From IMG/VR virus record IMGVR_UViG_2548876940_000011: a stretch of 39,560 nt of DNA. One strand, 5' to 3'. Every line of letters begins with the position of its first letter. Position 1 is the stretch's first letter. The DNA is from a virus (Duplodnaviria; Heunggongvirae; Uroviricota; Caudoviricetes). Position numbers and translations under genes: made by a program. Below are positions 5,474 through 34,674 of the stretch, one piece after another. A model generated the notes under the pieces. The model saw nothing but the letters and a program-made list of their open reading frames with translations, searched no databases and was not told where the DNA came from.

Positions 5474-5742
5474 GTAAAGTCGTACACATTATTTTCGAAT
5501 ATAAGGAGCACGTTATCCATAAAAACGCTGATGGAACAGTGCGCATGGGGGTAAGTCTGGACATACGTTCAACCGGGATAAAGCAGAAAGGTGATGGACC
5601 CGCCATGATTTTTGGGGTGGTTATGCTCGCGGAAAGCAGAAACTTCGCAGAGCTTGTGGCAATGAAAGCCAGTGCATTCATGAAAGACAGGGGCATGGCT
5701 TCCGGGGTTATTAACGGTAATGAATTTAATCAGCAGGGGTAA
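5470..5742 (+). CDS. Hypothetical small early protein, paralogue A
   Basis: 90 aa, begins MSKVVHIIFEYKEHV; 4-bp overlap with the upstream ORF. Confidence 0.45.
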   Translation: MSKVVHIIFEYKEHVIHKNADGTVRMGVSLDIRSTGIKQKGDGPAMIFGVVMLAESRNFAELVAMKASAFMKDRGMASGVINGNEFNQQG

Positions 5743-5746
5743 TTCC

Positions 5747-6040
5747 ATGAGCAAAGTACGCGTTATTTTTGAATTTAACCACGTAATGCATGAAGTAAAG
5801 CCAGCCGGTAATGATAGTCAGGAAATCACGGAGGGGGTTACTGCCACTGTAAAAATCGAACGTGATACGGAGAACAGACCGACAGGCCCATGTGATGTTT
5901 ATGCGCAAATTCTTAAATATCACAGCCCCACAATTATTCAGTTTCTGACAGATGAACTTCAGGGTTCCATGCAGGCTCTGGGGGTGAAAAGCAGCATTGA
6001 GCGCCGCTCCTTGCAGAACGCACCAGATACATTGCAATAA
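5747..6040 (+). CDS. Hypothetical small early protein, paralogue B
   Basis: ORF 5720..6040; internal ATG at 5747 gives MSKVRVIFEFNHV, similar to the N-terminus of the preceding ORF; RBS-like AGGGG upstream. Confidence 0.45.
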   Translation: MSKVRVIFEFNHVMHEVKPAGNDSQEITEGVTATVKIERDTENRPTGPCDVYAQILKYHSPTIIQFLTDELQGSMQALGVKSSIERRSLQNAPDTLQ

Positions 6041-6051
6041 GGAAAAACAAA

Positions 6052-6582
6052 ATGGCAAAACGCGTTACAAAATTAAAGGCTGTAGCCGAGGCCGCACCGC
6101 AGACCCGCGAAGAAGTCAGCCGCGATATCCGCACCCTGGGCGATATTCAGCGAGAGGCGCTGCGCCTGGAAACGGCGATGAATGATGAAGTGGCAGAAAT
6201 CACCGCCCGTTATACGCCGCAGATTGAAAATCTTAAAAAGCAAATCAAAGTGCTTTTTAAAGGGATTCAGGACTGGTGTAAAACCAACCGTGATGAGCTG
6301 ACGAACGGCGGCAAAACCAAAACTGCCAATCTGACCACCGGAACGGTGTCATGGCGGCTGGGAACGCCATCATGCAGCGTCAGCCGTGATGTGGAAGGTG
6401 TGATTGACACGCTGCGCCGTATGGGGCTTGAGCGATTCATCCGCACGAAAGAGGAAGTGAACAAGGAAGCCGTCCTGGCGGAGCCGGATGCGGTGAAAGG
6501 CATTGCCGGTATAAAGGTGAATAAAGGCGCTGAAAGTTTTTATGTCGAGCCTTTTGAACAGGATGCCGGACTGAATAAATAA
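6052..6582 (+). CDS. gam: Gam, Ku-like host-nuclease inhibitor that binds DNA ends
   Basis: 176 aa; segments LGDIQREALRLETAMND, NRDELTNGGKTKTANL, FIRTKEEVNKEA match Mu Gam as recalled from memory. Confidence 0.9.
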   Translation: MAKRVTKLKAVAEAAPQTREEVSRDIRTLGDIQREALRLETAMNDEVAEITARYTPQIENLKKQIKVLFKGIQDWCKTNRDELTNGGKTKTANLTTGTVSWRLGTPSCSVSRDVEGVIDTLRRMGLERFIRTKEEVNKEAVLAEPDAVKGIAGIKVNKGAESFYVEPFEQDAGLNK

Positions 6583-6679: not shown

Positions 6680-7222
6680 ATGGCATATTTTTATTTCAAA
6701 TTAGACCGTGTGCAGACAAATAAATATTTCACCAAATATCAACAGGCTGTTTTACCGCTACGCAACAGTATTCTTCGGACATTACTGAAAGATACAGGCG
6801 CTGCCGGATTGCGCTTAAAGCCGTTCGCCATGGACAGAATCAGTGAGTTTTATTTTGCCGGTGCTCTGCCTGCGGGCTGGCGTAAGCGCGATGATGTGGC
6901 TTTTATCGGTGGCGGACAGTGCTTTATAGCCAGACCTGATGAGTCATGCCCTGAAGGACCGGCGATTGCCGCAATGATTGAAGCCGCTGAACGCGAGTTA
7001 AGAAAGCGTCCTGATTTCCTTGTCTGGCTCTGTGAAAAGCTGGGGGTAATGAGAATCCCCTCCATGTTTAACACGGACTCCTGGTGGACCCCTTCGTTCT
7101 CCCGTGATGCTCTGTGCGTGGTGTTTAAAGTGGGCGCTTATGGCAGGGAAATAAACGGATGTATTCCTGAAGAATGCCAGGAAATTAAACATTCTGAATA
7201 TGTGGCGCTGACGGAGGAATAA
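6680..7222 (+). CDS. Hypothetical early protein
   Basis: 180 aa ORF; first of a tightly coupled run of four similar-sized ORFs; no motif recognised. Confidence 0.55.
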   Translation: MAYFYFKLDRVQTNKYFTKYQQAVLPLRNSILRTLLKDTGAAGLRLKPFAMDRISEFYFAGALPAGWRKRDDVAFIGGGQCFIARPDESCPEGPAIAAMIEAAERELRKRPDFLVWLCEKLGVMRIPSMFNTDSWWTPSFSRDALCVVFKVGAYGREINGCIPEECQEIKHSEYVALTEE

Positions 7223-7225
7223 TTC

Positions 7226-7759
7226 ATGATTGATGCAAAAGTGCTTGAAGGGGTTAAAAACTGGCTGAGTATTTACGGGCGTCTGACCTGCGGCGTACTG
7301 GCTGAAAAAATGAATATGCCGCCATCCTCCATGGTTTATTTTCTGCGTGATGCGGTTGATGCCGGGGTGCTGACGGAATGTAACGGTTTTTATGATATTC
7401 CGCGTCCCCGCCCGGTGCAGCCGGTTCGTCGCAAATGCAGACAGGAATCTGCGGCTGATGATGTTCAGTGGTGCAGCTTCAGAAAATCCCTGCCATGGAT
7501 TGAGGGGCATGATATTCCGTCGATGGCGTGGGAATTTGCTCAGGGCGTTCTGACCTGTGAAACCGTTTATGTGGTGGCTGAAGTTGATGAGCAGGCCATG
7601 AAAGAAGGCGTGCCCCAGTTTGTGATGGCGTATATCGACATTCGCCTGGGTGTCATCATCTGCGGTTTAAGCGGCTGGAATATCACCGCGCGTGTTCTGC
7701 GCTACCTGATTGTTGACCGGACAGCAGCGCCTGCCGGGATATCTGCGGAGGTGGCGTAA
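7226..7759 (+). CDS. Hypothetical early protein, possible N-terminal winged-helix
   Basis: 177 aa; starts 4 bp after the previous stop. Confidence 0.55.
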   Translation: MIDAKVLEGVKNWLSIYGRLTCGVLAEKMNMPPSSMVYFLRDAVDAGVLTECNGFYDIPRPRPVQPVRRKCRQESAADDVQWCSFRKSLPWIEGHDIPSMAWEFAQGVLTCETVYVVAEVDEQAMKEGVPQFVMAYIDIRLGVIICGLSGWNITARVLRYLIVDRTAAPAGISAEVA

Positions 7760-8274
7760 TGTTCTTTAAAACATCAAACCCTTCCGCGCTGGCTGCGTGG
7801 CAAAAATACCAGCAGGACTGCCAGACGGTAAAAGATGAGGCGAAACGCCTTGAGGCCGTGCTGAATGTTGCGTGCCGGTCGGTATTTGAATTCAGTATCA
7901 GTGGTTTTTGTTTTAAGGGACTGCGTTTTACGGAGGACAAATATCCTTTTCATCGCGACTTATGGCGAAAACCGACTGCGTCGAATGGCTGGAGCTGCAC
8001 ACCGCGCACATCACGTATCCCTAAAGCCCTGCGTGTTGCCTCTGATGAACTGAACAGTCTGTGGCGTGAATATTCGCCCGTCACGTATGCCAGAACCGAT
8101 GCCCTGTTGTTCTGGCTGGGTATTGACTTCTCAGCAATATTGTATGGTCCCGTGAACTGGTTCTGCGTTGACAATGTGATTTATCTTCAGTGCGAAGATG
8201 ATTCCGCAAAACGGAAAATGACCGAAATTCTGTCTGATGAGTTTTATGCTGCCGAAAAGCGAGTCAGGGGGTGA
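7759..8274 (+). CDS. Hypothetical early protein
   Basis: 171 aa; start overlaps the previous stop (TAATG). Confidence 0.55.
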   Translation: MFFKTSNPSALAAWQKYQQDCQTVKDEAKRLEAVLNVACRSVFEFSISGFCFKGLRFTEDKYPFHRDLWRKPTASNGWSCTPRTSRIPKALRVASDELNSLWREYSPVTYARTDALLFWLGIDFSAILYGPVNWFCVDNVIYLQCEDDSAKRKMTEILSDEFYAAEKRVRG

Positions 8275-8277
8275 TGT

Positions 8278-8829
8278 ATGATGATTTTACAACACATGGG
8301 GCGAAAAGGTCGTACACCCGCTCATGTCCGCGCGTGGACACCTGAAGAAGATGCGCTACTGATTGCGCTTTATTCATCCACCCCGGTTAAGGATATTGCT
8401 GCCAGAATAAAAAGAACTGTCTGGGCTGTATATAACCGGACTGGTGTATTGCGCAGTTCATACCCGGAGTTACTGAAATATAAACACCCAAGATTTACAC
8501 CTGATGAAGATAAGTTTATTCGAAAAAATGCCAGAACAATGACCTGCCAGCAAATGGGAGAATATCTCGGACGTAATAAAGATTCTGTCAGATGTCGGGC
8601 AGGAATGATTGGTGCTGGATTAACAAAGTGCGGAGAGTTACGCCCCGGCACGCGCATATCTGATGATGATGTACGTCTTATACGTGCGCTGCGTGATTCC
8701 GATTACCCACGCCGTCTGTCATTCCGGGAAATTGGCGAAAAGTTTGGAATATCTGAACATTCTGCTCACGCAGTTTATTACCGTCGCCGGACTGCCGAGG
8801 ACGCTGTATTACGGGAGTTAACGCCATGA
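8278..8829 (+). CDS. Putative DNA-binding protein with three tandem Myb/SANT-like repeats
   Basis: 183 aa; three ~50-aa repeats (WTPEEDALLIALY..., FTPDEDKFIRKNA..., ISDDDVRLIRALR...) each shaped like a helix-turn-helix unit. Confidence 0.5.
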   Translation: MMILQHMGRKGRTPAHVRAWTPEEDALLIALYSSTPVKDIAARIKRTVWAVYNRTGVLRSSYPELLKYKHPRFTPDEDKFIRKNARTMTCQQMGEYLGRNKDSVRCRAGMIGAGLTKCGELRPGTRISDDDVRLIRALRDSDYPRRLSFREIGEKFGISEHSAHAVYYRRRTAEDAVLRELTP

Positions 8830-9155
8830 TAACGACCTTATTTGTTGAATCAGATGAACCTCTTGTGTGTGCCGCCGGAATGCCGCTCTGTGGCGGAACG
8901 CTGACCGGTGTTTATTTCGGGGATTTACGCGGTTATCCCTGGCATTCACTGAATGATGCTTTCCCACCTGATATGGAGGCTGTCGTGCTGATTGTTCAGT
9001 ATGGTCACCGTCAGGAGCTGCGCATCGGCCATATGGGGTATGAAGGCTTTTTTGTTGATGAAGAAACCGGAGCCTGCCTTGAAGATGAAGACGGACAGGT
9101 GACGCACTGGTGTCATATTTCGGCTTTACCGGAATTACGGGAGGTGAATGCGTGA
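8826..9155 (+). CDS. Hypothetical early protein
   Basis: 109 aa; 4-bp overlap with the upstream ORF. Confidence 0.5.
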   Translation: MITTLFVESDEPLVCAAGMPLCGGTLTGVYFGDLRGYPWHSLNDAFPPDMEAVVLIVQYGHRQELRIGHMGYEGFFVDEETGACLEDEDGQVTHWCHISALPELREVNA

Positions 9156-9517: not shown

Positions 9518-9826
9518 ATGAGTATTGAATTAAGATCGTCTTATGAATATCGCAAAATCCTTATCGCCGGAGGCATGAAACCGGAAGATGCAGAGCAATT
9601 CGTTTCTTTTATGGATAAAGAATGTGACAAGCGGGATATGCCAGAAATTATTATGGATGACATGATTCTGGATTCAGCCGTGGCGTTAAGTCCGTTATGG
9701 ATTGTGCATACTCTTGCGGAAATAGCTAAAAGAAGTGACAAGCAGGCGGCTGTCGCCGCCCTGCGATTACTGGCTGAATTAAGTTGTTCAGTCAATCCCA
9801 ATACGTTCTTTGACGAACCTGGTTAA
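9518..9826 (+). CDS. Hypothetical protein
   Basis: 102 aa; RBS-like GCAGG upstream; AT-rich; 3-prime end overlaps the convergent minus-strand gene. Confidence 0.5.
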   Translation: MSIELRSSYEYRKILIAGGMKPEDAEQFVSFMDKECDKRDMPEIIMDDMILDSAVALSPLWIVHTLAEIAKRSDKQAAVAALRLLAELSCSVNPNTFFDEPG

Positions 9827-10198
9827 CATTGATTTGGTAACTTCTTTGATTAGATCAAATGGTGCGTCTGTAAACTCCTTTTTGATTCTTTCAAGGATTG
9901 GTTTTTTTCTCAGGGCGTTAGCTAAATCATGCCCCTGCTGGGTAAGCATAATGGGCGTGTTTCTGAAACCAACGCCCAGAGAATGGAAAAAGAAACCAAT
10001 ATATTTGGGTGTTTCTGACTGCATATCACCATTAACAATTGAGCCATTATCAGCGAGAAGCATAAGATGAAAAACTTTTTTATCCTTTTCCTCTCCTTCT
10101 GCCTCAGCCATGCCCAGATCCTGTAGTGTAAGGAAAGGTGTTTCAGCATCCTGAAAAGTTGTGAGAATACTTAATACTTCATCGTAATCTATTTTCAT
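9788..10198 (-). CDS. Hypothetical protein on the opposite strand inside the early operon (moron-like)
   Basis: 136 aa; markedly AT-rich by eye relative to flanking genes; convergent 39-bp overlap with 9518..9826. Confidence 0.55.
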   Translation of the reverse strand: MKIDYDEVLSILTTFQDAETPFLTLQDLGMAEAEGEEKDKKVFHLMLLADNGSIVNGDMQSETPKYIGFFFHSLGVGFRNTPIMLTQQGHDLANALRKKPILERIKKEFTDAPFDLIKEVTKSMLTRFVKERIGID

Positions 10199-10262: not shown

Positions 10263-10775
10263 ATGAATCGCGCTTCCCTGATTACCTTAATACATGTCGC
10301 AAAACGCGATCTACAGCTTGACCATGAGACCTACACATCCGTACTACTGGCAGCCACCGGCAAACCCAGTTGCCGGGATATGTCACCGGATGAGTTATCC
10401 CGCGTGCTGGATGTTTTCAAAAAACGCGGTTTTAAAGTGCGTCAGAAGCCGGTTAACCGGGCCTTAAAACCGGGGACGGTGACCGCCAAAATTCGCGCCA
10501 TCTGGAAAGTGATGCACCGGCAGGGCTTTATCGCTGATGGCGGGGAAAACGCCATTAACCGCTGGGTGAAATCGCAGACGGCCGCGCAGAACGGCGGTGA
10601 AGGTGTGGCTAACTGGCAGTGGCTGGAGCAACACCCCGCACTGGCCTCTGATGTGCTGGAGCGTCTCAAACGCTGGCACCGCCGCAAAATGCTGGATGTG
10701 CTGGGGATGTCAGCGCGTACAGTGATAAGTTATGAGCGCGTTTGCAGGCTGTATGAAAAATCATTCCCCCGTTAA
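10263..10775 (+). CDS. Mu gp16/GemA-like early regulatory protein
   Basis: 170 aa directly upstream of Mor, as in Mu; assignment by position and general resemblance. Confidence 0.65.
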   Translation: MNRASLITLIHVAKRDLQLDHETYTSVLLAATGKPSCRDMSPDELSRVLDVFKKRGFKVRQKPVNRALKPGTVTAKIRAIWKVMHRQGFIADGGENAINRWVKSQTAAQNGGEGVANWQWLEQHPALASDVLERLKRWHRRKMLDVLGMSARTVISYERVCRLYEKSFPR

Positions 10776-10845
10776 CTCCAAATCCCGCCACAGCGCGGGA
10801 TTTTTATTTTAAACTTGCCCTGTGTAATGATGACCGGAGGCGGGT

Positions 10846-11268
10846 ATGGCTGAAACACAGATGAGCATGTTTGGTGACAGCGAACAGCTGCACGCGCTGA
10901 TTGACCGTCTGGATGATATTCCTGATGATGAGCTGAAAAAGAACTGGCCCGGCACGCTGCGGGACCTGGTTGATGTGATCAGTGCTGAACTGCACCGTCA
11001 GGGGATTGAACCTGCTCAGGCGGGAATGCTTGCCCGTAAAGTTGCGGCCGCACAGGCCGGGTACATGGGCGGGCGTGGTTATTATCTCCCGGTCGGTGAA
11101 TCCCTTTTCACCGAACTGCGCAATAATGAGATTTTTTCCCGCTGGAGCCAGGGCGAAAAAATTGAAACCCTGCGCCGCCACTACCAGATGTCAGAGACGC
11201 AGATTTACTCCGTTATCCGTAACCAGCGCCGCCTGCATCAGGAACGCACGCAGCCCCGGCTTTTCTGA
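10846..11268 (+). CDS. mor: Mor/C-family transcriptional activator of middle/late genes
   Basis: 140 aa; acidic N-terminus (MFGDSEQLHALIDRLDDIPDDEL) and C-terminal HTH (LRRHYQMSETQIYSVIRNQRR) typical of Mor/C; placed just before the lysis genes. Confidence 0.8.
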   Translation: MAETQMSMFGDSEQLHALIDRLDDIPDDELKKNWPGTLRDLVDVISAELHRQGIEPAQAGMLARKVAAAQAGYMGGRGYYLPVGESLFTELRNNEIFSRWSQGEKIETLRRHYQMSETQIYSVIRNQRRLHQERTQPRLF

Positions 11269-29128: not shown

Positions 29129-30236
29129 ACTGTATATCGGTGGCAGTATTTTTTCCGGCTGGCTGACGGTCAGCGTCCGTCGCTCGCTGGAGCATCTGGC
29201 CGGGTCGTTTGAACTGGGGCTGATGCTGCCCGGTGAGCGCATCCCCTCAGCCCTGCGAACCGGTCAGTCCCTGACGCTCAGAATTAACGGGCAGACGGTC
29301 ATCAGTGGCTGGCTGGATCAGGTCAGTCAGCGGATCAGTGCAACCCGTCATCAGATCAGCATCAGCGGTCGGGATAAAACCGGCGACCTGGTGGACTGTG
29401 CCGCCATCCATCCCGGCAGCCAGTGGCGCAACCGGACGCTGGCACAGATTGCCGCAGATTTATGTGCGCCCTTCGGGATAGCCGTGCGCTGGCAGGTTAA
29501 CGACGACACGGCTGCACGCCCCTTCAGCTCTTTTACGCTGGAAAACTCAGAAACCGTGGCGGATGCGCTGACCCGTGCTGCCCGGCATCGCGGGGTGCTG
29601 GTGACCAGTAATGCTGACGGCGATCTGGTGTTCACCCAGGCAGGAAGCCAGCAGACGGACAGACTGGTGCTGGGAGATAACCTGCTTGATGCCGATTACA
29701 ACACGGACTGGCGAGGACGATACAGCGAATACCGTGTCCGGGGACACGGGCGCGGTGGTGGCAAACGGGGAGACAGCGAATCCGCCGCCCGTCTGGCAGC
29801 ACCTGTGGGCGTCATCAGTGATGAGCAGATCGGCCGCTACCGGCCGAAAATCATCCTCGCCGATCAACAGACAGACACCACCGGTGCACGGCAGCGTGCC
29901 CTGCGTGAAATGCGCCGTGCGATTGCCCGTTCAGAACGGTTTTCTGCCACCGTGCGTGGCTGGTTCCGGGATGATGGCCGGTTATGGGATGTCAATCTGC
30001 TGACCGGTGTTTCAGCCCTGCGTTTCGGTATAGAACAGACTGAACTGCTGGTCTGTCAGGTAGAGTTTTTACTTGATGAACATAACGGGGAAGTCACCCG
30101 GCTGGTACTGGCACCGCGTGACGGCTTTATCGTTCCGGCAGAGCCGGACAGTAAGGGCCGGGGTGGTTCCGGTGACGATGTTGATGCCTTTATTCGCCAG
30201 CAGATGAAAAAACAGGGGATCAGCTTTGATGAATGA
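29112..30236 (+). CDS. Mu Q-like baseplate hub protein
   Basis: 374 aa; overlapping start. Confidence 0.75.
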   Translation: MSSRIELYIGGSIFSGWLTVSVRRSLEHLAGSFELGLMLPGERIPSALRTGQSLTLRINGQTVISGWLDQVSQRISATRHQISISGRDKTGDLVDCAAIHPGSQWRNRTLAQIAADLCAPFGIAVRWQVNDDTAARPFSSFTLENSETVADALTRAARHRGVLVTSNADGDLVFTQAGSQQTDRLVLGDNLLDADYNTDWRGRYSEYRVRGHGRGGGKRGDSESAARLAAPVGVISDEQIGRYRPKIILADQQTDTTGARQRALREMRRAIARSERFSATVRGWFRDDGRLWDVNLLTGVSALRFGIEQTELLVCQVEFLLDEHNGEVTRLVLAPRDGFIVPAEPDSKGRGGSGDDVDAFIRQQMKKQGISFDE

Positions 30237-33848: not shown

Positions 33849-34370
33849 TTATTCAGGCTTCTCCGGCCATTTAATGGCGTCAAATTCAGCTTTGTTTTTA
33901 ATCGCTGGTAGTTCCATTTTTTTCACCTGACTGATGTATTTCATCCATCGTGTAAGCGCAGCTCTGTTTTCATCACTAATCGTGCCCAGCTGTAACTCAG
34001 TTCTCCAGTCATTAATCTTTTCATATGCCTGATTAAGATATGACTGGCGCAGTGCTTCCGCTTTTTTGGTATAGTTAACCGGGAGTTGTGAGATGACACC
34101 ATTATCAAACTTCCAGTTACCTGAAATATCAGTACCTTCAGGTAATTCGTCTGTCTCAACAACGGAAAAACCCGCAGGATACAGCGCCGAAGCATCCTGT
34201 GATATTGAGCAGATAACACCGCTGTCAGGGGTTATGCAAAGTTTATATTTTTTGGTGAATAATGGCAGGGACTCATAGAAATCCTTACCATCTTCACTTT
34301 GAAAATACTGTACATCATTACCAAAGGGTTTTTGTTCCGGGTAATATCGGTTAACATTAATCAGTTGCAT
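33849..34370 (-). CDS. Tail-fibre assembly chaperone (Tfa / Mu U-like), opposite strand to the fibre gene
   Basis: ORF 33849..34421; from Met at 34370 reads MQLINVNRYYPEQ...; ISQDASALYPAGFSVVET and C-terminal DWRTELQLGTISDENRAALTRWMKYISQV are typical of Tfa (compare recalled P2 G: ITRDASTLNPEGFSVVEV). Confidence 0.75.
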   Translation of the reverse strand: MQLINVNRYYPEQKPFGNDVQYFQSEDGKDFYESLPLFTKKYKLCITPDSGVICSISQDASALYPAGFSVVETDELPEGTDISGNWKFDNGVISQLPVNYTKKAEALRQSYLNQAYEKINDWRTELQLGTISDENRAALTRWMKYISQVKKMELPAIKNKAEFDAIKWPEKPE

Positions 34371-34674
34371 AAACATCACCATGTAAATCAATGATAAAAA
34401 CAGGAATAATAATATCGCCATATACAGGCAAGGGGTTTCTGAAATAACGCATATTTTCAGATGCTGACCGCAGCGTCATGAATCGTTAAATCAATTATAA
34501 GCCGGTAATATGCGGTTATCGTATTGGCCTGTCCATCCTTTGTCGTTATGTTCCTGCCTAACCGGCTCCGTCACAAAAAGTACCGTGATGCTTTTTTTGA
34601 ATTTCCGCAAAACACATATTTATCAGCGGTTGTTATTCTGACTCTGTTTAATTCAGAAACAGGCAGAAAAGACG

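Follow-up and report, generated by a model that had tools for sequence, protein, structure and literature searches.

A predicted triple helix-turn-helix protein in the early operon of a Mu-like Escherichia coli prophage

A putative DNA reader of the early region

The virus record IMGVR_UViG_2548876940_000011 (39,560 nucleotides, referred to below as the window) is an essentially complete Mu-like prophage of Escherichia coli. Its open reading frame (ORF) at positions 8278-8829 on the plus strand, of the WP_000973019.1 type, encodes 183 amino acids followed by a stop codon. Judging from its sequence, the protein is probably a monomeric, sequence-specific double-stranded DNA-binding accessory regulator or site-marking protein of early lytic development. 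It consists of two Myb/GcrA-like repeats (R1 and R2) and one generic helix-turn-helix (HTH) unit (R3), and is an uncharacterised member of a large, already annotated class of phage Myb-like/HTH proteins. Most genes of the semi-essential early region of Mu are still without known function, and one gene of this region can now be described as fixed, intact and coding for a predicted triple-HTH DNA reader. The protein is a relative of Mu gp9 and occurs as two alleles with diversified recognition helices; the prophage lineage that carries it includes O157:H7 prophages.

According to the mechanism we propose, the gene would be transcribed as part of the Mu-type early operon, between gam and gemA/mor, and the protein would carry its three three-helix HTH modules on flexible basic linkers. 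Each module would place its third helix in the major groove, while the basic N-terminal arm and the linkers may add backbone or minor-groove contacts. As in c-Myb R2R3 and in Cbp1/Cbp2, the modules may jointly recognise a single extended, asymmetric site. The three recognition helices would thereby set a DNA specificity that would differ between two allelic classes.

Predicted fold, repeats and charge

The gene starts with the ATG at 8278 and ends with the TGA at 8827-8829, as given by the ORF list and the sequence, and PGAP called the same gene in identical E. coli prophages; an earlier note, made from the sequence alone, had placed it at exactly these coordinates. The three tandem HTH units described there were recovered in the AlphaFold2 model (mean predicted local distance difference test (pLDDT) of 78.8, with 86-93 in the domain cores). 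The model is all-helical with zero strands and contains three three-helix bundles, formed by residues 22-32/37-44/48-58, 75-84/90-97/101-111 and 129-140/149-156/160-169, as well as a C-terminal helix at 173-181. The linkers were modeled with low confidence, and the predicted architecture looks like beads on a string.

On the plus strand, the coding sequence begins with a basic N-terminal arm (residues 1-19, positions 8278-8334; pLDDT <50), for which the alignments give the consensus M.LKPMG.PG..PAHVRA. Repeat 1 (residues 20-58, 8335-8451) and repeat 2 (residues 73-111, 8494-8610) are Myb/GcrA-like three-helix HTH units according to profiles and model, starting with WTPEED and FTPDED, respectively, and are separated by the basic, variable linker 1 (residues 59-72, 8452-8493). 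The recognition helix of R2 (residues 101-111) is an allelic hot spot. Linker 2 (residues 112-126, 8611-8655) contains the family-invariant residues K117 and G119. It is followed by repeat 3 (residues 127-169, 8656-8784), a generic tri-helical HTH with an invariant D129 and a longer loop between helices 1 and 2 (H1 and H2) than R1 and R2. The recognition helix of R3 (residues 160-169) is the segment most divergent between the two alleles. A conserved C-terminal helix with the consensus R.TA.DA..RE.LP (residues 170-183, 8785-8826) was assigned from alignment and model.

The units start at W20, F73 and I127, at spacings of 53 and 54 residues. The earlier description of repeats of about 50 residues, each opening with an aromatic residue and an acidic turn, applies to R1 (W20-TPEED) and R2 (F73-TPDED), and fails for R3, which opens with I127-SDDD; most homologues have a tyrosine at the position of I127. 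Within the single sequence, the similarity of the repeats is marginal (Smith-Waterman, 2000 shuffles: p = 0.018 for R1/R2, 0.054 for R2/R3 and 0.57 for R1/R3). When a family alignment of 30 homologues was cut into the three units and the resulting profiles were compared by hhalign, scores of 73.8 (R1/R2, probability 98.9%), 31.0 (R2/R3, 90.6%) and 28.7 (R1/R3, 86%) were obtained. The column-shuffled nulls, 150 per pair, had a mean of ~9, a standard deviation of ~2 and a maximum of 17, and none of them reached the observed score for any pair. The repeats thus stand out from shuffled controls at the profile level, and with the HTH bundles of the model, neither of the two outcomes that the earlier note had named as refuting was obtained.

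A DNA-binding role, as already put forward in the earlier note, is suggested because the protein is strongly basic, with an isoelectric point (pI) of 10.0, a net charge of +13 (35 K+R versus 22 D+E) and basic arms and linkers. A DNA mimic or decoy was rejected on the same values. Nothing was found in support of mimicry or sequestration of a host DNA-binding factor, which had also been considered, and an HTH protein this basic is not a mimic of DNA.

The charge also bears on a mainly protein-protein mode of action, with RNA polymerase/sigma-70 or a nucleoid protein of the host as conceivable targets, through SANT-like HTH surfaces or terminal docking motifs, which we judge to be very unlikely. 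The sequestration of a host factor considered in the earlier note would fall under this mode. Such a role would account for the conservation of the N-terminal arm and the C-terminal helix, neither of which has an obvious DNA role, and the diversification of helix 3 described below could stem from an arms race. However, the charge of +13 and the basic linkers favor nucleic-acid binding, and protein-binding SANT domains are typically acidic. GcrA, the best structural match, acts bound to sigma-70 (PMC5887438), but the protein has neither the sigma-interacting domain of GcrA nor a Pfam GcrA match.

Likeness to known HTH proteins

The DNA-reading model for the triple-HTH protein is supported by in-register matches to c-Myb R2R3 and to Cbp2. 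As in the eukaryotic Myb/SANT repeats of c-Myb R2R3, its units are three-helix modules of ~50 residues that open with W/F-T-x-E-E-D and use helices 2 and 3 as the HTH, and they are arranged in tandem with ~53-residue spacing, in register with R2R3. The family profile aligned residues 18-105 to c-Myb residues 60-149 with a whole-sequence E of 8.9e-5 (E of 0.016 for the best aligned stretch alone). In this alignment, neither R1 nor R2 has a tryptophan at the second or third Trp position, and R3 starts with an isoleucine. The protein differs from Myb/SANT proteins in its non-Myb third unit, its marginal Pfam score, the presence of the first Trp only and its prokaryotic-virus host. The match to PF00249 scored 25.2 bits against a cut-off of 24.4, with residues 19-33 as the only matched stretch, and PF13921 stayed below its cut-off (17.5 versus 22.9 bits).

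R3 is not specifically Myb-like, because its homologues mostly match Sigma70_r4 (14 of 25) or AsnC-type HTH models (10 of 25), with Myb_DNA-bind_6 matched by only 2 of 25. Its best PDB sequence matches were a designed HTH repeat and CENP-B, and a protein search with repeat 3 alone returned three short fragments only. The Myb/SANT-like label of the earlier note is therefore appropriate for R1 and R2, both Myb/GcrA-like, and has to be replaced by a generic HTH assignment for R3.

A three-helix domain like GcrA's N-terminal DNA-binding domain was found in the protein. In hhalign comparisons with the GcrA N-terminus (with a numbering that agrees with PMC5887438), probabilities of 89% for R1 and 95% for R2 were obtained. 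GcrA of Caulobacter (PDB 5yiu; PF07750) has one such module instead of three, and its C-terminal domain interacting with sigma-70 region 2 is absent from the protein, the C-terminal part of which is the third HTH. PF07750 gave no match to the protein even at E ≤ 10. The pocket by which GcrA binds N6-methyladenine (m6A) consists of R33, N34, I37 and G38 (PMC5887438); the corresponding residues are V48/W49/Y52/N53 in R1 and K101/D102/R105/C106 in R2. A GcrA-type m6A reader was rejected, as the pocket residues are not conserved.

Cbp2 (PDB 2lvs) was the top Foldseek match and the second-best PDB sequence match (E 3.5e-3, residues 29-114), with both domains in register. The archaeal proteins Cbp1 and Cbp2 bind DNA repeats by tandem HTH repeats and a basic linker (PMC3597662). 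Like the triple-HTH protein, they are small and basic and contain only tandem imperfect HTH units, three in Cbp1 and two in Cbp2, with basic linkers. They differ from it in being archaeal, chromosomal and CRISPR-repeat-binding, and there is no evidence for a common DNA target or for orthology.

RefSeq names for the same E. coli gene family vary: "SANT/Myb-like DNA-binding domain-containing protein", "AsnC family protein", "DNA-binding protein", "HTH domain protein" and "hypothetical protein" were all encountered. The automated name "AsnC family protein" is a misnomer. An AsnC/Lrp regulator was rejected, since the protein lacks the C-terminal alpha/beta RAM domain, its model is all-helical and the HTH_AsnC-type match is sub-threshold (19.8 bits against a cut-off of 27).

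Retention and two alleles in E. coli

Gene retention was counted in 5426 complete E. coli genomes. The MuB gene and the gp11-gp12 block each occurred in 233 genomes, at 277 and 275 places, respectively; the triple-HTH gene occurred in 232 genomes at 273 places and was full length at all of them. It is thus fixed in this prophage lineage, whereas the ORFs directly downstream of it come and go. Its full-length retention supports a role as an accessory regulator or site-marking protein.

The identity to the gene of the window is bimodal, with 29 records at ≥90% and 204 records, including O157:H7 strains, at 77-80%. The O157:H7-type allele is WP_000973021.1. The genes flanking it are 90-99% identical. 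With a dS of 0.56 between the alleles versus 0.05-0.25 in the flanking genes, the alleles are older than their surroundings. Their divergence is confined to residues ~41-170, both gene ends being conserved, and nucleotide identity is lowest in the recognition helices of R2 (57%) and R3 (53%). At the amino acid level, the alleles differ at 18 of 32 positions in the three third helices (H3) and at 1 of 33 in the three first helices, and dN/dS is 0.88 in H3 and 0.10 in H1+H2. In the wider family, too, no structured element varies more than the third helices. This pattern would be expected from a switch in a specificity determined by helix 3, and a conserved scaffold with an H3 that varies between alleles fits a DNA reader of changeable specificity. 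The dimorphism of the recognition helices and the methyltransferase synteny described below are the sole mildly surprising points of this analysis.

Several points weigh against the reading of the protein as a sequence-specific DNA-binding regulator. The Pfam Myb match is marginal and spans just 15 residues, and of the three canonical Myb tryptophans the first alone is kept (W20, with the aromatic F73 in R2). Eukaryotic SANT domains of this fold can bind proteins instead of DNA, and the variability of helix 3 would also fit a protein-protein surface in an arms race. The predicted template modelling score of the AlphaFold2 model is 0.42, so that the model does not predict how the modules are placed relative to each other. 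A candidate target site was not found, within the left 13 kb of the prophage the gene itself is the only segment that co-segregates with the allele type, and a search of the literature did not return a functional study of any family member.

Mu gp9 and the wider family

The protein matched PHROG 323 ("transcriptional regulator, D5-like") with an E of 5.8e-52 over residues 5-182. Mu gp9 (E8; NP_050613.1; 99 aa), which carries the same name in RefSeq, matched this family with an E of 5.2e-29, and its residues 4-95 aligned to residues 65-167 of the triple-HTH protein, i.e., R2, linker 2 and R3 (hhalign probability 98.4%, E 5e-15). Both proteins are uncharacterised and encoded in the semi-essential early region. 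They differ in that gp9 has two modules and is encoded upstream of gam, whereas the triple-HTH protein has an additional N-terminal Myb-like repeat and is encoded after gp12, in the slot of gp13/gp14. No full-length homologue was found by tblastn in Mu, D108 or SfMu. These alignments suggest a protein of the gp9 type, with two modules, to which a duplicated Myb-like unit was added at the N-terminus. In phage Mu (NC_000929), gp9 lies at 483-782 of the extracted locus (L039), upstream of gam; the gp9 slot of the window is occupied by an unrelated ORF (5720-6040, PHROG 2230).

An exhaustive profile search returned 8653 representative clusters (50% identity) at E ≤ 1e-3, 88 of them at E ≤ 1e-30. 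Among the best 150 clusters, about 22 share the single-stretch architecture of ~170-216 aa, and most of the others are long and match the R1R2-type unit in 3 to 11 stretches. Many uncharacterised phage proteins of multi-HTH build were also found in BFVD, among them several endonucleases and, in phage Goslar, a "Myb-like domain-containing protein". The view that tandem Myb repeats are unusual in phage early proteins could not be maintained in the face of PHROG 323, the 8653 clusters, the look-alikes in BFVD, Mu gp9 and the SANT/Myb-like name given by PGAP.

The multi-repeat relatives are located on compact prokaryotic metagenomic contigs and form a very large set. Prokaryotic proteins such as P0024, P0027, P0028 and P0031 contain 4-11 tandem units of the type WTxEED...LGRS..AV..RA..LG. 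In P0024, a ResIII/Helicase_C helicase is followed by ~10 near-identical WTQEED-type repeats (seven Pfam Myb stretches; 140 bits for Pfam Myb_DNA-binding), and P0027 passes the Pfam threshold for GcrA. Some of the multi-repeat proteins, with 600-760 aa, comprise little besides repeat units.

In the mycobacteriophage Thibault, the N-terminal half of the HNH_3 endonuclease gp103 is an R1R2-type module with 35% identity to residues 12-118 of the triple-HTH protein. HNH homing endonucleases of the gp103 type share the R1R2-type double repeat, whereas the triple-HTH protein has no nuclease domain. The R1R2-like modules are presumably the DNA-targeting part of gp103, and their occurrence there suggests that the R1R2 module may be a portable DNA-recognition device.

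The triple-HTH protein could accordingly be a nuclease-less descendant of the DNA-binding domain of a homing endonuclease, either a selfish remnant or domesticated to occupy or protect the homing site. Beyond the match to gp103, weak PHROG matches to endonuclease families and the phage endonucleases among the BFVD structural neighbors point in this direction. We nevertheless consider it rather improbable: the nuclease-less triple-HTH architecture is conserved in the ~22 representative clusters, which come from Mu-like and P2-like phages and from others, purifying selection on the scaffold is strong (dN/dS 0.10) and the gene is fixed in the prophage lineage. Conserved architecture, purifying selection and fixation argue for an independent function, with which an ancient origin from a homing domain stays compatible.

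The gp103 gene of Thibault (locus L037, 2000-4130) has small ORFs on either side that are annotated as fragments of DNA methylase. In the mycobacteriophage Bombitas (locus L036, 2004-3431), the stretch matching that of Thibault is annotated as one methyltransferase of 475 aa, of which only residues 4-179 fit the C5 methylase Pfam model. Both look like an insertion of a homing endonuclease or intein that was annotated inconsistently. A genuine methyltransferase fusion in mycobacteriophages was rejected, as the match in Thibault sits in an HNH_3 gene between methylase-annotated fragments.

Genomic company of the homologues

In other phages, homologues recurrently lie beside orphan methyltransferases or Tad2-like genes, which hints at a link to counter-defence. 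The protein may then be a regulator or helper tied to phage counter-defence or DNA-modification modules that binds DNA and tunes or directs the protection of phage DNA, in the form of an Aca-like autoregulator, a control-protein-like regulator or a partner that targets or occludes sites for orphan methyltransferases (or for Mom in this prophage). We regard this as unlikely. In P2-like phages (L019-L024, L027/L028), the homologue directly follows a D12 Dam methyltransferase and precedes the replication gene A, with a gene of the PAPS reductase family after it in L021. It lies between Dam/DUF4406 and a C5 methyltransferase in L026 and one gene away from a C5 methyltransferase in L029, and homologues in L004 and L030 stand beside Tad2-like genes. 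The window prophage itself has a Mom homologue.

On the other hand, no methyltransferase is adjacent in the Mu-like lineage, where Mom lies 30 kb from the triple-HTH gene, and the P2-like phage Shae_phiSM has the homologue and no methyltransferase. Accessory genes in general occupy the slot upstream of gene A, so that the adjacency may be a coincidence. Furthermore, the m6A-pocket residues of GcrA (PMC5887438) are not conserved in the protein, and the apparent methylase "fusions" of mycobacteriophages look like an HNH endonuclease gene between methylase-annotated fragments. A homologue is also present in another transposable-phage lineage. The link of the homologues with DNA-modification and counter-defence genes is suggestive, and may instead reflect shared accessory-gene slots.

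Combining this synteny with the two alleles, the protein could be an exchangeable DNA-specificity reader, the alleles of which recognise different sites and act with modification enzymes (Dam and Dcm in P2-like phages, Mom here). Its task might be, for example, to guide, gate or sense modification, or to hide sites from host restriction. We give this version a low probability; if true, it would be a new kind of phage counter-defence specificity factor and not a plain transcription regulator.

Some details of these loci were recorded. In L021 (7060-9544), the genes for the Dam methyltransferase, the triple-HTH homologue and the PAPS-reductase-family protein are joined by overlapping stops and starts upstream of gene A, and an ASCH-domain gene lies further upstream of this block. 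The homologues near Tad2-like (anti-Thoeris) genes are located in early operons (L004, 7659-8567; L030, 5233-5838 and 9273-9596). L030 also has an Acb2/Tad1-hairpin gene nearby and a Phage_Mu_Gp12 homologue outside any Mu context. In L004, the operon with the family member also contains a second, shorter paralogue (7193-7627; 144 aa, 28% identity, HTH_23/Sigma70_r4_2), which lies two genes downstream of that member. The Mom-family DNA-modification gene of the window (38023-38955; Pfam Mom, 260 bits) is located at the right prophage end, and the listed ORF (310 aa) probably starts too early.

Operon setting

The triple-HTH gene appears to be a member of the Mu-type early operon, as no promoter or terminator of its own was found and it is packed against its neighbors, a position that supports the proposed regulator; the assignment to the early proteins in the earlier note agrees with this operon structure and with known Mu biology. 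A Shine-Dalgarno-like AGGGGG (8266-8271, plus strand), read from the sequence, precedes the ATG by 6 nt, and the stop codon of the upstream gene (8272-8274) lies 3 nt before it, which indicates genes tightly packed within a single operon. The start of the downstream ORF (8826-9155, plus strand; 109 aa, PHROG 6925, function unassigned) overlaps the stop codon as ATGA, implying translational coupling. Promoter-like or terminator-like sites flanking the gene on the plus strand were not found; the nearest convincing terminator-like hairpin is located at 10780-10803, 3' of gemA. It is a strong intrinsic-terminator-like structure with a 9-bp stem and a T-run between the gemA stop and the mor start, and falls inside the expected single early transcript.

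The landmarks of the region, all on the plus strand, are the host-nuclease inhibitor Gam (6052-6582) at the left and gp16/GemA (10263-10775) and Mor (10846-11268) at the right. Directly upstream of the triple-HTH gene are homologues of Mu gp11 (7226-7759, Pfam Gp11_C) and Mu gp12 (7759-8274; PHROG 2314, common to the ORF and Mu gp12). As the order in phage Mu is gp9-gam-gp11-gp12-gp13-gp14-(gp15)-gemA-mor, the gene occupies the gp13/gp14 slot of the semi-essential early region.

The region of the gene matches prophages of three complete E. coli genomes at 100% identity and, at 88-89% identity, regions annotated as "inserted Bacteriophage Mu-like phage" in two Stx-phage records. In an identical copy annotated by PGAP, the order is repressor, Ner-like HTH protein, Mu transposase, MuB-like ATPase, small ORFs, Gam, three hypothetical proteins, the triple-HTH protein, further hypothetical proteins, gp16/GemA, Mor, lysozyme and late genes.

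Other features of the prophage

An ORF of 136 aa on the minus strand (9788-10198; PHROG 585, weak DUF2513 match) lies inside the early operon, at the position of the reverse-oriented gp15 in Mu. Some related prophages carry it at 100% identity and others lack it; it resembles a moron inserted here and would presumably depend on a promoter of its own. In the Mu-like prophage of an E. coli O157:H7 strain (locus L038), PGAP annotated a "tRNA-OTHER" at 29779-29866, between head-morphogenesis and virion-morphogenesis genes; ARAGORN found no tRNA in the whole window. A tail-fibre assembly gene (Caudo_TAP; 33849-34421, minus strand) adjoins a gene on the plus strand (34675-36729), the product of which has 684 aa and contains DUF6645 and a SASA sialate-O-acetylesterase-like domain. 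The two genes may belong to a region that is invertible or determines host range and encodes a tail protein that modifies glycans.
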